A stretch of DNA of 64,000 nt from Longimicrobiales bacterium. Lineage in GTDB: Bacteria > Gemmatimonadota > Gemmatimonadetes > Longimicrobiales > Gaopeijiaceae. Under the pieces are notes generated by a model that worked only from the letters and a program-made list of their open reading frames with translations, did no database searches and was not told the DNA's origin. Positions 41,163 to 47,064 of the stretch are shown piece after piece (position 1 is the first letter of the stretch; each line of letters opens with the position of its first letter). The stretch spans positions 480,001 to 544,000 of the forward strand of contig CBDCNQ010000002.1 in assembly GCA_965219445.1 (NCBI GenBank). Reading direction: 5' to 3'. Both the position numbers and the translations under genes were made by a program.

Positions 41163-42561
41163 TCAGCCCTGTCCGTGCACTTTTACCGGGGCCCACGGTT
41201 GGCTCAGAATGGACGTGCCGGCCTGGCCCAGATCGTTGGCGCCCCAGCACCAGACATCTCCGTCCGCGGTCAAACCGCAGGTGTGTTGCCTTCCCGCCGC
41301 GACCTGGGTAAACGTGTGACCCCCGGTGACGGCAACGGGCTCCTCACGATATTCGGTGGTGCCGTCACCTAATCGACCCTCTCCGTTCTCGCCCCAGCAC
41401 CACGCAGCACCCCCCGTGGTCAGCCCGCACGTGTGGACGCCCCCGCCACTGATCGCGGCAAACGGACCGAACCCGACCATCGGAGCATATACGCTGCGTG
41501 CAAAATCGTAGCAGAACACCGACCCCAGAGAGGTGCGCGCGCAACGTCCGCTTACCTGTACAAAGAGGGAATCGGCCGTCAGACCCGTGGCCACGGGCAT
41601 CCGCAGGGGCACATACGAGCACCGCACCTGGATCGGGCCTCCCGCCTTGTCCACACCGTTCTGACAGGTCTCGGTGCCTGCCAGCGTCGGGCTGAAATTG
41701 TCGAGGTTACCCCAGCAGTAGAGGTGGCCCGCGTCGGTCACCCCGCAGGTCGTCGCCTCATGCGTATCGAGCGAGACCCACTGAAGGTCCCCGGCGACCA
41801 ATTCGGGTGTGGCGACGGGCCCGCTGCGTTGATTGCCACCCAACTTCCCAGTGCTGTTATCACCCCAGCAGTACGCGGCCCCAATGGAAGTCAGCCCGCA
41901 CGTGTGGCCCCAGGCGAGGGTCAGGGTGGTGAACGCCCGGCCGCCCGAGACCGCGACCGGATCGAAGAACCAGCGGCGTTCCGACACGCCGAGTTGCAGT
42001 GTGAAGTTGTCGCCCCAGCACCATGCGCTGCCGAACGTATCCAGACTGCACGCGTGAGAGCTACTCACCTGGACCGAGCGAGCGTCGGTCTTTCGGGGCA
42101 CGGGCATCGGACTGCACGGTGTACCCCAGCAGGTACTAATTGCGGGATCGACCCCCCATTGCCCGAGTTGGGAGCTACTCCCGGTTCCCCAGCAAAGGGC
42201 GATGTCGCCTTCGGAGACGGCGCACGAAGCCCGCCCGCCCGCTGCAATGTCCGTGACGGGCCCCATGACGACGGTGTCTGGTACGAACACGGCCAGAGAG
42301 TCCACGAGCCCGCCGGCTTCCGCCACCAGGAATGTGCGACCAGGCGCCCGCGCCTGGATGATTCTCGTGGGATCGTTCGGGGAGTCGGGACCGCTCGGGG
42401 AGAAACGAGGGGCGCCGACGTCGGAGGCGATCGAGCGATCGCGGATGATCCAGTTGATTTCGGCGGTAGGAGGTGTCTCGAAGCACCCCGATTGCACCCA
42501 CGCCTGATCTGCCGATCCCACCACCAGATGCAGGGAATCAGGGAAGAGGGCGACGTCGGTA
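41163..42561 (-). pseudogene. RCC1-repeat (beta-propeller) protein, 5' end cut off by the IS256 left end
   Basis: Repeated HTCGLT..G.A.CWG.N..G.LG. The frame is open up to the IS junction at 42561/42562, with no signal peptide or clear RBS-linked start left. Confidence 0.75.
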
Positions 42562-42722
42562 GAGCTAGGATCAAAGGCATCATAGGGGCATGGCGACCGC
42601 TACCGGTACCGATCAGCAGCGAAGCAGCCCGAAGACGAAGAGGCGTTCTCCTCCGGGAACGGGTGCGCGTTCATCATTGTTCGCGCAAGGAAGCAACCCA
42701 CCTATCCAAGAGGAGAACGCCG

Positions 42723-43970
42723 ATGGAGAGATATATCGGACTCGACGCACACGCGTCGAGCTGCACGCTGGGGATTGTAGGCCCCAGCGGCAAGCGCTTG
42801 GGCTCGCAGGTGGTGGAGACGAACGCGCGGGCGCTGATCGAGGTGCTGCGAGGGATTCCGAGGAACCGGCACTTGTGCCTGGAAGAAGGGACGCTGTCGG
42901 GGTGGCTGTACGAGGTGCTGGAGCCGCACGTGGAGGAGCTGACGGTGGCGGGGGTCGGCAAGAGCCGGGGCCCGAAGACCGACAAGCTGGACGCGTTTGC
43001 CCTGGCGGAGAAGCTGCGGATCGGATCACTGGAGACGAGGGTCTACAAGAACCGGGGCCAGTTCAGGCGGCTGGGGGAACGGGCGAAGAGCTACGACTTC
43101 CTGGTCGGCGACACGGTGCGGGTGAAGAACCGGCTCAAGAGCGTGCTGCGCTCGAGAGGAGTGGCCTACGGCGCGGGGCGCTCGGTCTACTTGAAGCGCG
43201 ACCGGGAGGAGTGGTTGGCCAAGCTGCCGGAAGCGAGCAGGACGACGGCCGGGTTGCTGTACGAGGAGCACGACGCACTCGTGGCATTGAGGGCGAAGGC
43301 CGAGAAGGCGTTGCTGGCGGAAGCACGCAAGCATCGAGAGTGGCATGTGCTGAAGACGTGCCCGGGTCTGGGTCCGATCCGGACGGCGGAGCTCCTGCCG
43401 GTGGTGGTGACGCCGTACCGGTTCCAGAGCCGGAGCAGGTTCTGGGCGTACTGCGGACTGGGCGTCGTGATGCGGAGCTCGTCGGACTGGGTGCGGGGTC
43501 CGGGTGGGCGGTGGGTAAGGGAACCGGTACAGCAGACGCGGGGGCTGAATCGGAACTTCAACCACACGCTGAAGCGTGTGTTCAAGGGCGCGGCGACGAC
43601 GGTGATCGGTCGGGCCGAAAACGAACCCTTGTACCGCCACTACGAGCGACTCCTGGAGGGGGGCACGAAGCCGAATCTGGCGAAGCTGACGATCGCGCGT
43701 CAGCTCGCCTCGATCGTGCTAGCGGTGTGGCGCACGGGCGAAGCGTACGACCCAAGAGACTGGAAGCGACGGAGTAAACCGGCCTGGGATCGGCGAGCGT
43801 GGGGTCGAAAGCGGTCACAACATGGGGTCCGACGAAACGGAAGCGAACCGGTTACAGGGGACAGCATCCATACACACCGTGGGCCGGGGCAGAGAGCCCA
43901 AGCCCCCACTCAAAGGCTATGCACCCCTGGAAGAGCCGAACGAAGCGATGGGCCACAGAGTCCCAGATAG
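42723..43970 (+). CDS. IS110-family DEDD transposase/recombinase (probable native stop 43777; 1-nt frameshift near 43752)
   Basis: YIGLDAH (D), CLEEG (E), KTDKLDA (D,D), PGLGPI, AYCGL....RSS; GAGGAG RBS before ATG 42723. Confidence 0.92.
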   Translation: MERYIGLDAHASSCTLGIVGPSGKRLGSQVVETNARALIEVLRGIPRNRHLCLEEGTLSGWLYEVLEPHVEELTVAGVGKSRGPKTDKLDAFALAEKLRIGSLETRVYKNRGQFRRLGERAKSYDFLVGDTVRVKNRLKSVLRSRGVAYGAGRSVYLKRDREEWLAKLPEASRTTAGLLYEEHDALVALRAKAEKALLAEARKHREWHVLKTCPGLGPIRTAELLPVVVTPYRFQSRSRFWAYCGLGVVMRSSSDWVRGPGGRWVREPVQQTRGLNRNFNHTLKRVFKGAATTVIGRAENEPLYRHYERLLEGGTKPNLAKLTIARQLASIVLAVWRTGEAYDPRDWKRRSKPAWDRRAWGRKRSQHGVRRNGSEPVTGDSIHTHRGPGQRAQAPTQRLCTPGRAERSDGPQSPR

Positions 43971-44022
43971 AAGGATGGTTCCCGCTCCAGAGCGGAGAAC
44001 GCGACGGCTGTGAACGTCTTCC
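43855..44022 (+). ncRNA. Putative bridge RNA/seekRNA core (ends approximate, within 43778-44150)
   Basis: Nested stems enclose TACACACC and TCAAAGG, which match the insertion target, and ATAGAAGG, which matches the element's own right end. Confidence 0.8.
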
Positions 44023-44263
44023 GGACTGCGATGCGGACCCTGCGAGCGCACCCCTCCCCACCCTGAGTCGTCGACCGGGCAATCCAAACCATGCGGACGC
44101 CGACGGTCAAAAAATGAGCCGACGGCGCGTGGGGAAGGTGCGTCTTGACCGCCAGCCCCATAGAAGGGTGTGTAAAAAAAGAGGCGACGTACCTTTCCGC
44201 TAGGTAGTAAGAAGTTAACCAGCGAATCCCGGGTGAGCGCCCGGGGGAAAGGAACGATGCCTC

Positions 44264-45508
44264 GTGAGGAAGAATATGGTGGGACCCGAGAGTGAGTCCA
44301 GCACGCCGACGTGGGAGTGCTTGGAAGCGCTGGTTCGTGAGAAGGCCCAGGAGATGGTCCAGCGGATTCTGGAGGAGGAAGTGACGGAGTTGCTCGGCCG
44401 GGAGAAGTCGGAGCGGAAGACGGTCGTAGACCCGGCGCCAGGCTACCGCAACGGCTACGGCAAGGCTCGGCGGCTGGCGATGAGCTCGGGCACGATCATG
44501 CTCCGACGGCCCCGGGTTCGAGGCATTGAGGAGCGGTTCGAGAGTCGGGTGTTGCCGTTGTTCGCACGACGGACGAAGGAGGTGGGTGCTCTGCTTCCGG
44601 AGCTGTATCTGCACGGGCTGGCGGAGGGAGACTTCGAGCTGGCGATGCGGGGCCTGCTGGGCGAGGGGGCCCCGTTGTCGAAGTCTTCGATTTGGCGGCT
44701 GCGGGCGGGATGGACGGCGGAGTTCGAGGAATGGAGCCAGCGTCGCCTGGAGGGCCGTGAGGTCGTCTACGTATGGGCGGACGGGATCTACGTGAAGGCA
44801 GGGCTCGAGCGGGACAAGGCAGCGCTGCTGGTGGTTCTCGGTGCGATGCGAGACGGGACGAAGGAGGTGTTGGCCCTGAGATCGGGCTACCGAGAGTCGG
44901 TCGAGTCCTGGTCCGAGGTGTTGCGGGATCTGAAGGCACGCGGCATCGAGGCGCCCCGGCTTCTGATGGCGGACGGCAACGCGGCGATCTGGGGCGCAGT
45001 ACGGCAGGTATGGCCTGAGGCGGGCGAGCAACGGTGCTGGAACCACAAGATGAGGAACGTGCTGGACCGGCTGCCTCAGCGGGAGCAGAGCGAGGCGAAG
45101 GACCTTCTCAGGACCGTGGTCTACGCACCGAGGCGGTCCGAGGCGCTGAAGGCCCGTGAGGCGTTCGCCAGGCGCTACAGACCGTGGTATCCGAAGGCGG
45201 TGGATGTACTCGAGGACGACTGGGAGCGGATGGTGGCGTTCTACGACTTCCCCGAGGACCACTGGAAGCATCTACGCACGACGAACGTGGTCGAGAGCCC
45301 CTTTGCCGCAGTACGGCTCAGGACAACGGCGGCGAAGCGCTTCAAGCGGGTCGAGAGCGCTACGGCGCTGATCTGGAAGCTGCTCTTGGTGGCGGAGAAG
45401 CGCTTCAGAAGGCTCGACGCTCCTCACCTCCTCAAGGACGTATTTGAAGGAAGAAAGTTCGAAGACGGAAAGCCCGTCTCAACCCAACAGCGGAAAAACG
45501 CCGCCTGA
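44264..45508 (+). CDS. IS256-family (Mutator-type) DDE transposase
   Basis: YRNGY, YLHGLA.GDF, VWADGIY (D), LMADG (D), QRCWNH, TTNVVES (E). Confidence 0.95.
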   Translation: MRKNMVGPESESSTPTWECLEALVREKAQEMVQRILEEEVTELLGREKSERKTVVDPAPGYRNGYGKARRLAMSSGTIMLRRPRVRGIEERFESRVLPLFARRTKEVGALLPELYLHGLAEGDFELAMRGLLGEGAPLSKSSIWRLRAGWTAEFEEWSQRRLEGREVVYVWADGIYVKAGLERDKAALLVVLGAMRDGTKEVLALRSGYRESVESWSEVLRDLKARGIEAPRLLMADGNAAIWGAVRQVWPEAGEQRCWNHKMRNVLDRLPQREQSEAKDLLRTVVYAPRRSEALKAREAFARRYRPWYPKAVDVLEDDWERMVAFYDFPEDHWKHLRTTNVVESPFAAVRLRTTAAKRFKRVESATALIWKLLLVAEKRFRRLDAPHLLKDVFEGRKFEDGKPVSTQQRKNAA

Positions 45509-45537
45509 AACATTTACACACCTATTGACCCAACCTC

Positions 45538-46614: not shown

Positions 46615-47064
46615 ATGCTGAGACACCGAGAGAGAATGAAAGAGAATGGAATAGCCCCACCAACCTGGGACGGTAAGCGAAGCGCGGCAGCTCCTGCGGA
46701 CTCGGAGGTGGTAGATAGGCCGCTGCGCCGGCGGTTCGCTCCGTCGTACAAGCTGCGGATCGTCGAAGAAGCGGACCGGTGCACGGAGCCCGGAGAGGTT
46801 GGCCGACTCCTACGGCGGGAGGGCTTGTACTCGTCGCACCTGACGACATGGCGCAAGGCGGCGCATAGCGGGTCCCTGAAAGCGCTGTCGAAGAAACGAG
46901 GCCGTAAGCGCGAGCGCAATCCGCTGGAGGAGAAGGTGCGCAAGCTGGAGCGCGAGAACACTCGCCTCGAGAAGGAGCTCCAGAAGGCGCACTTGATCAT
47001 CGACGTCCAGGGAAAAGTTGCAGGGCTGCTGGGATTGAGCCTCGAGGACGGGACGAACTCATGA
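46615..47064 (+). CDS. IS3-family OrfA (HTH plus leucine zipper)
   Basis: RRRFAPSYKLRIV, LRREGLYSSHL..WR, coiled coil; the start may be ATG 46636. Confidence 0.88.
   Translation: MLRHRERMKENGIAPPTWDGKRSAAAPADSEVVDRPLRRRFAPSYKLRIVEEADRCTEPGEVGRLLRREGLYSSHLTTWRKAAHSGSLKALSKKRGRKRERNPLEEKVRKLERENTRLEKELQKAHLIIDVQGKVAGLLGLSLEDGTNS

Follow-up and report, generated by a model that had tools for sequence, protein, structure and literature searches.

The closest described counterparts of the locus presented here are insertion sequences (ISs) of the IS110 family whose recombinases are guided by RNA. In IS621, a DEDD recombinase works with a structured bridge RNA that contains one target loop and one donor loop (Durrant et al., 2024; PMC11208160), and the same report predicted that 93% of IS1111 elements carry a bridge RNA in their right end. 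The guides of the IS1111-type elements ISEc11, ISKpn4, ISPst6 and ISPa11 were described as seekRNAs with a short form of 70–100 nt and a long form of 145–170 nt; ISEc21 targets IS3 genes, and the close relatives ISEc11 and ISXne4 are naturally retargeted (Siddiquee et al., 2024; PMC11187229). Here, we describe a 64,000 nt stretch of DNA from a bacterium of the order Longimicrobiales, phylum Gemmatimonadota (assembly GCA_965219445.1, contig CBDCNQ010000002.1, positions 480,001–544,000, forward strand), which is referred to below as the window and provides the numbering used throughout. In this window, an IS256-family element has its left inverted repeat interrupted by an IS1111-group element, and we assign a probability of about 0.9 to the reading that the segment 43855–43929 is the predicted target-binding loop of a seekRNA or bridge RNA belonging to the inserted element.

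The locus resembles the seekRNA elements in several respects. The predicted RNA likewise lies downstream of a transposase of ∼340–350 amino acids in an element with subterminal inverted repeats, the strand that matches the target top strand is likewise 5′ of the strand that matches the bottom strand, with the two overlapping in the target, and close relatives are likewise naturally retargeted with their stems kept (PMC11187229). The target loop measures 75 nt and the two conserved modules together measure 146 nt, compared with the short and long seekRNA forms given above. The present elements differ in their transposase clade (Gemmatimonadota, Myxococcota and Acidobacteriota), in their target and in a serine motif that reads RSS[S/A]D rather than S(T)G. 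With IS621 (PMC11208160), they share a DEDD recombinase, a predicted structured RNA with one target loop and a putative donor loop, and the strand logic of the guides, but the order of the guides along the RNA is reversed, as in IS1111-type seekRNAs. They further differ from IS621 in a top-strand target guide that reaches only one base of the core and in a second module built as a multi-helix junction instead of a simple internal loop; a right-donor guide was not found convincingly.

A landing site inside a mobile element, at a fixed position and in one orientation, is likewise known for another site-specific IS110/IS1111 element; IS4321/IS5075 reportedly target the repeats of other transposons. 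In the present case, the host is an IS256-family element, insertion is confined to one of its two repeats and the guide that would explain this choice is directly readable. A literature survey of titles and abstract openings found no IS1111 targeting of IS256 inverted repeats. We regard the locus as a well-supported case, from a divergent and widespread clade, of a mechanism that is already known (IS1111 RNA guides, 2024), and the general picture of how IS110/IS1111 elements work is unchanged by it. It offers a natural case of predicted RNA-guided insertion, from the little-studied Longimicrobiales, that is readable in full. One genome combines the guide with its target, the donor end, an off-target site and variant sites that are empty. 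Different guide–target pairs on one conserved scaffold are carried by ∼30 related elements. At 351 amino acids plus ∼146 nt, the system is also a compact candidate for comparison with ISEc11 and IS621.

Predicted target loop and transposase

The IS1111-group element spans ∼1.59 kb (42578–44167, plus strand). To its left lie the outer 16 nt of an IS256-family left inverted repeat (GAGCTAGGATCAAAGG; 42562–42577, plus strand), the final 7 nt of which constitute the left target half and the core GG. The rest of the IS256-family element lies to its right (44168–45534, plus strand) and comprises the inner left repeat (GTGTGTAAAAAAAG…), a transposase gene (44264–45508) and the right repeat to ∼45534. 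This gene encodes an IS256-family transposase (200 bits to Pfam PF00872 and 297.8 bits to the NCBIfam IS256 model, cut-off 150). The left junction reads …GGATCAAAGG/CATCATAGGGG and the right junction …CCCCATAGAAGG/GTGTGTAAAAA, and the element boundaries are ambiguous by the 2 nt core GG, which is found at both (42576–42577 and 44166–44167). Because GAGCTAGGATCAAAGG on one flank and GTGTGTAAAAA… on the other jointly make up one IS256 left inverted repeat, this repeat has been split 16 nt from its tip by the insertion. The tip aligns with the reverse complement of the IS256 right repeat, which reads GAGGTTGGGTCAATAGGTGTGTAAA on the other strand (∼45514–45534).

Two stems enclose the internal loop and the inner hairpin of the predicted target-binding loop (plus strand). 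The closing stems were placed correctly to the base by the original prediction, CAGGGG (43855–43860) pairing with CCCCTG (43924–43929) and GCAT (43864–43867) with ATGC (43919–43922). The inner stem that it proposed, GTGGG (43879–43883) with CCCAC (43905–43909), is present in the window but is not general as a 5 bp stem: in the 31 aligned relatives described below, its two central G–C pairs are found in 30/31 each, the U–A pair in 20/31 and the other two pairs in 6–8/31. One strand of the internal loop, TACACACC (43871–43878, plus strand), is the reverse complement of GGTGTGTA (44167–44174), and the other, TCAAAGG (43910–43916, plus strand), is identical to 42571–42577, as had been noted previously. 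The rebuilt empty site is the 14 bp sequence TCAAA-GG-GTGTGTA. TACACACC is complementary to the top strand GGTGTGTA, which consists of the second core G and the right half, and is the predicted top-strand guide, equivalent to the right target guide (RTG). TCAAAGG has the top-strand sequence of the left half and core and would therefore pair with the bottom strand; it is the predicted bottom-strand guide, equivalent to the left target guide (LTG) and including the core GG. The guide strand complementary to the target top strand thus precedes the strand complementary to the bottom strand in the 5′ to 3′ direction.

These matches were compared with 100,000 dinucleotide shuffles of the 389 nt non-coding region that follows the transposase gene. 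A right-flank match, as a complementary 8-mer, arose in 249 shuffles and a left-flank match, as an identical 7-mer, in 10,975 (11%); the two combined, ordered as here and no more than 80 nt apart, arose in six. The minimum free energy of the 75-mer is −29.8 kcal/mol (z = −2.0; 5/200 shuffles fold as well), which is modest taken alone. No position in 43855–43929 varies among the 22 full-length copies of the element in the genome, and all of the RNA modules in the genome (24/24) carry the same two guide strings, although part of the inner hairpin is deleted in one of them. Over the corresponding positions, the IS256 right repeat has the sequence TCAATAGGTGTGTA (minus strand, ∼45514–45527). Two mismatches to the site had been claimed here, both in the core; the number stands but the placement does not, since the mismatches are at positions 5 and 6 of the 14 bp site, one being in the left half and the other at the first core base.

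The transposase gene (42723–43777, plus strand) has a canonical product of 351 residues, preceded by 145 nt of the element and followed by the 389 nt non-coding region. The product matches PF01548, the N-terminal RuvC-like DEDD domain, with 38.6 bits (cut-off 29) and PF02371, the C-terminal Transposase_20 domain, with 32 bits (cut-off 21.3), the latter covering only profile positions 2–52 of 87. A search of solved structures with the single transposase sequence gave no match; a profile of 19 relatives was needed and matched the IS621 transposase structure (8wt6; E = 1.5e-10) as well as ISCro4. Residues Asp8, Glu54/Glu55, Asp87 and Asp90 are invariant in these relatives and align to the acidic residues in the IS621 segments HYIGID, IEaTG and NKTDTVDA. 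Ser253 is nearly invariant and aligns to the serine of the IS621 ESG motif, which we take to be the catalytic serine, within a local motif RSSSD and not SG. The enzyme is thus an IS110-family DEDD transposase. The original prediction of a non-coding guide downstream of an IS110/IS1111-type transposase is supported by these Pfam domains and by the IS1111 layout, strand order, conserved scaffold and guide–flank covariation. A sub-threshold match of residues 123–287 to the NCBIfam model of the TIGR-Tas RNA-guided endonuclease was also seen (57.6 bits; cut-off 100). TIGR-Tas proteins have an RNA-binding domain in common with IS110 enzymes.

The frameshift that had been proposed for this transposase is present in the assembly. 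The window copy lacks one C in the C run at 43751–43753 relative to 17 of the 22 full-length genome copies, so that its open reading frame (ORF) is lengthened from 351 to 415 residues and continues to 43970. The product is 351 residues long in those 17 copies, among them G000:C2:583576–585165, 415 residues in four (the window copy and three others) and 429 residues in one. Since the change sits in a homopolymer, an assembly error is possible. Contigs assembled from the DNA runs X3 and X4 have an extra C after 43750 and no A at 43931; as many copies are collapsed in them, these contigs cannot tell a real frameshift from a homopolymer error.

Conservation and retargeting in relatives

Scanning one genome per species identified 432 related loci, 80 of which were fetched (39–100% transposase identity). 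They come from Gemmatimonadota including Longimicrobiales, from Sorangium and other Myxococcota, from Acidobacteriota and from others, and most have a conserved RNA-like module 70–100 nt past the stop codon. A structural alignment of 31 non-redundant relatives analysed with RNAalifold gave two closing stems and an inner hairpin, with compensatory changes in 14 of 29 pairs. In a hand-set structure of 36 pairs, 86.7% of the cells are paired (77.3% in shuffles) and 20 pairs have changed on both sides; the covariation score is 0.301, compared with 0.142 in shuffles, none of 500 of which reached it, and controls with slid partners were 34–48% paired. The outer stem (helix 1) is paired in 97.8% of cells and helix 2 in 99.2%, with G–C/A–U swaps in 5–13 sequences for each pair of helix 1. 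The covariation of the inner part is carried by a longer hairpin that extends beyond the 5 bp inner stem proposed earlier.

The original prediction had named covariation between the loop strands and the flanks of homologous elements as a check, and this was found for both strands. Element ends were located by the conserved motifs CTTGAC…CATAGAA on the right and CATCATAGG on the left. Of the 31 aligned relatives, six yielded no right end and 12 no left end, and the left ends of L056 and L081 were dropped, the end motif having matched only with a substitution. The longest exact match of the top-strand guide averages 6.08 nt to its own flank and 3.00 nt to foreign flanks (n = 25); for the bottom-strand guide, the values are 6.53 and 3.86 nt (n = 17). 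Neither own-flank value was reached in 20,000 permutations. Matches of at least 7 nt are present for 12/25 top-strand and 10/17 bottom-strand guides. Among the individual elements, L048 matches 8/8 on both sides, L053, L061, L086 and L064 match 9/9, and L065 matches 6 nt exactly and 8/9 in its best window. Acidobacterial elements with 41% identity and a core TC match 9–10 of 10 right-flank positions with guides that differ among themselves, and an element with 40% identity that is present in 15 copies in a congeneric genome matches 10/10.

Two close relatives are informative. L045, with an 83% identical transposase, keeps the stems and carries different guides that fit its own flanks; it appears to represent natural retargeting, in parallel with ISEc11/ISXne4 (PMC11187229). 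L044, with a 95% identical transposase, has the guides TACGCACC and TCACTAGG and a left flank that resembles an IS256 right repeat; its genome contains one full copy only, the right flank of which fits the guide poorly. The description of the system as reprogrammable would rest on the published behaviour of the family together with natural retargeting of this kind among the relatives. L067 (1436–1616) carries a 17 nt tandem duplication that takes in the top-strand guide and extends into the first part of the inner hairpin.

The best surviving alternative, which we consider improbable, is that the conserved segment works as DNA, as an internal copy of the target and of the element end that is read directly by the transposase or by a single-stranded DNA intermediate, for example a folded strand from the circle after excision. 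All that the compensatory changes demonstrate is the folding of one strand, RNA from the region was not observed and a 2026 preprint (10.64898/2026.08.31.748434) reports that IS621 mainly excises a single-stranded circle, all of which such a DNA role would accommodate. However, the equivalent region is a transposase-bound RNA that is active in trans in four IS1111-type elements and one IS110-type element (PMC11187229), and the position, size and strand order found here agree with the published RNAs. We thus favour an RNA guide for the segment at 43855–43929.

Element ends, second module and proposed mechanism

The IS1111 group is recognised by subterminal inverted repeats of 7–17 bp, a transposase of ∼330–350 residues and a long downstream non-coding region, a layout described in PMC11187229 and PMC11208160. 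The left subterminal repeat GGGGCATGGCG (42585–42595, plus strand) pairs with the complement of 44150–44159 with one gap, giving an 11 bp repeat that lies 7–8 nt inside each end. It was found by aligning the two ends and is absent among the 25 pairs listed by an inverted-repeat finder. The repeat changes at both ends in step in L061, L054 and L048. With a transposase of 351 residues, 389 nt downstream compared with 145 nt upstream, and these repeats, the element has the IS1111-group layout. The right end (44145–44167, plus strand) comprises a −35-like TTGACC (44145–44150), the right subterminal repeat (44150–44159) and CATAGAAGG. CTTGAC, a spacer and CATAGAA are found at the right end of 25/31 relatives, with TTGAC 16–17 nt from the right tip. 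A circle-junction promoter is known for the family (PMC11187229), and the right-end TTGAC is a candidate for one half of such a promoter, to which the left end would supply CATCAT (TATAAG in L065). Both junctions contain the GG as part of AAGG, and the rebuilt empty site has the same length as the right repeat, with no target duplication. At the right junctions of L066 and L075, an extra GAA/AAG triplet was observed between the right end and the guide-matching flank (CATAGAAGAAGG… compared with the expected CATAGAAGG…), which suggests slipped strand exchange in a short AAG repeat.

A second conserved RNA module follows the target loop (43934–44000, plus strand) and consists of a 5′ strand (43934–43949), a small hairpin (43950–43963), a 3′ strand (43964–43977) and a further hairpin (43978–44000). 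It is as conserved as the target-loop module in the 31 relatives, with the small hairpin paired in 98.4% of cells and the 3′ hairpin in 86.9%, and with seven pairs changed on both sides. ATAGAAGG in the 3′ strand equals the element right end plus the core. In relatives, this donor-like strand follows the right end and reads ATGGAAGG, ACAGAAGG, TCAGGAGC and ATAGAAAC, or ATAGATC in the acidobacterial group; its match averages 7.52 nt to the own right end and 5.86 nt to foreign ones (25 relatives; 0/20,000 permutations). The ATAGAAGG strand is therefore the predicted equivalent of the left-donor guide (LDG). Three tandem copies of the RNA module at a spacing of 458 nt were observed in a near-identical element from another Longimicrobiales bin (L042:3606–4683).

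By analogy with the family, insertion would proceed as follows. The transposase mRNA and the non-coding region would be co-transcribed, probably from a promoter made by the joined ends of the circle, and the transcript would be processed to an RNA of ∼75–150 nt that is bound by the transposase. This RNA would pair with both strands of the 14 bp site. The joined element ends would be held by the second loop, and strands would be exchanged by the enzyme at the GG core. The expected outcome is orientation-specific insertion without target duplication; in this genome, every perfect site is filled.

Genomic copies and competing explanations

The genome (4.56 Mb, five contigs) contains 22 full-length copies with 98–100% identity, plus fragments. 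The 16 nt IS256 tip lies to the left of 20/22 copies and a one-base variant to the left of one more, and the DNA beyond it differs in every copy. IS256 interior sequence lies to the right of 19/22, both IS256 halves are present in 19/22, and 19/22 occupy the same site in the same orientation. The exceptions are one copy at a non-IS256 site, one with other DNA on the right and one with a partial second copy; in the last of these (G000:C5:1611142–1613244), the full copy is directly followed by positions 1080–1589 of a second one, in a tandem or nested arrangement. The copy at the non-IS256 site (G000:C2:336726–338314), with flanks …CTCAAAGG and GTGTGACG…, matches 13/15 guide positions; here, between …GACTCAAAGG and GTGTGACGCAGC…, both core G residues are covered by both guides.

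No unoccupied perfect 14-mer was found anywhere in the genome. The five empty IS256 left repeats (G000:C5:267952, C4:199278, C4:1221665, C5:483697 and C5:635847) read TCAAGGG.., TCAGAAGGG.., TCGAAGGG.., TCAGAGGG.. and ..GGGTGAGTA and are all changed, three by one mismatch and two by a 1 nt deletion or insertion. Three of the five belong to the near-identical main IS256 subfamily, with changes exactly at the crossover point, and two read GAAGGGTGTGTA, like the element right junction. Imprecise excision may have left these changed sites as scars, or they may have survived through selection for immunity; the 1 nt change in the A run may instead be a homopolymer error. The right-repeat version of the site, with its two mismatches, is occupied in 0/29 cases; this and the lack of empty perfect sites fit the earlier proposal that the two mismatches explain why the right repeat is not hit. 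The sites form a data set on mismatch tolerance, in which one mismatch or indel leaves a site empty and two mismatches leave it empty in 29/29. The IS256 copy in the window (44167–45534) has ∼22–29 differences from the other main-subfamily copies, which differ by only 1–9 among themselves.

The uniformity of the occupied sites raises a second alternative, which we judge slightly less probable still than a DNA role, namely that, although the family does use such a guide, the copies in this genome form a fossil population, the IS256 element and its passenger having spread as a composite by IS256 transposition, so that the number of copies would be no record of RNA-guided targeting. In its favour, all of the occupied sites are the same, five of the 22 transposases are frameshifted and no RNA was seen. 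However, IS256 parts that are 1–4 differences apart carry IS1111-type parts that are 20–30 positions apart, and the distances between IS1111-type parts do not follow those between the adjoining IS256 parts in 19 composites (Mantel r = −0.06; 3,967/5,000 permutations at least as high). As the two distance matrices are uncorrelated, repeated independent insertions are favoured over spread of a composite unit. Furthermore, a left repeat split 16 nt from its tip should hinder IS256 transposition, one copy occupies the non-IS256 site described above and 17 copies keep an intact 351-residue gene. The weakest alternative, that the matches arose by chance in G+C-rich sequence or that the region is the coding tail of the 415-residue ORF, can draw on the frame that is open through 43970 and on the frequency of the left-flank 7-mer in shuffles, but is dismissed given the rarity of both ordered matches in shuffles, the stop at 351 residues upstream of the hairpin in 17/22 copies and the relatives, which keep base pairs and not the reading frame and whose loop strands track their own flanks.

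Several observations weigh against the assignment of 43855–43929 as an RNA target-binding loop. Of the GG core, the second base alone is covered by the top-strand guide, giving a 1 nt overlap, whereas both IS621 guides include the core in full. No Rfam family matched in 42000–45000 at E values up to 10, the only hit being a chance match to NEAT1_2 on the other strand (42523–42643; E = 2.8). The transposase scores 112.8 bits against NCBIfam NF033542 (IS110 family RNA-guided transposase), below the cut-off of 140; this cut-off is a naming threshold and not a structural criterion, and since the match runs end to end (residues 4–340 on profile positions 1–342 of 343), a divergent branch is indicated. 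The frameshift, if real, swaps the last eight residues at the extreme C-terminus of the window transposase and no others. In the flank comparison, the top-strand guide matches by no more than 4 nt in 7/25 relatives (L052, L093, L085, L059, L044, L056 and L089) and the bottom-strand guide in 2/17 (L082 and L044); most of these are single copies in metagenome bins, the flanks of which may have been rearranged or may represent off-target sites. Because the relatives are akin and several have similar targets, significance is overstated by the permutation counts, which are not to be read as probabilities. No convincing strand for the element left end, equivalent to the right-donor guide (RDG), was found in the second module, where only GATG stands against CATC, a pairing that covaries at one position in L048 and not in L068 or L085. 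An outer stem for the second module (alignment A2, 103–107 with 178–183) was rejected at 58.7% paired.

The expression data belong with these points. The assembled contigs of two metatranscriptome runs include one short contig each from the element, both lying inside the transposase gene only (42806–43091 and 42936–43088; depth 2.4–2.9; 95–99% alike). Between a twentieth and a tenth of the sampled words occur in the two runs; no contig covers the non-coding region and, as contigs cannot show absence, they speak neither for nor against expression of the guide. A scan of the linear element for σ70-like promoters found none, and is silent on a promoter at the circle junction.

A wider interpretation, which we offer tentatively and think doubtful as a whole, treats the element as an RNA-guided hyperparasite that saturates the IS256 population and probably silences it, each perfect left repeat having been entered separately. 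The only IS256 copies spared would be those altered precisely where strands cross over, and the two spared sites that read GAAGG would be scars of imprecise excision that block re-entry and so protect the spared IS256 copies. The element would belong to a distinct IS1111 subfamily in which the donor is read partly by RNA and partly by protein, based on a clade of at least three phyla, the sub-threshold IS110 score, the altered serine motif and a second loop that seemingly reads one donor end.

Two neighbouring ORFs complete the description of the region. Adjoining the composite on its left is an ORF of 453 residues (41163–42524, minus strand) with repeated CWG..N..GQLG-like motifs, which resemble RCC1 repeats by eye. 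Further to the right, an ORF at 46615–47064 (plus strand) resembles the first frame of an IS3-family element and has a leucine-zipper-like tail.

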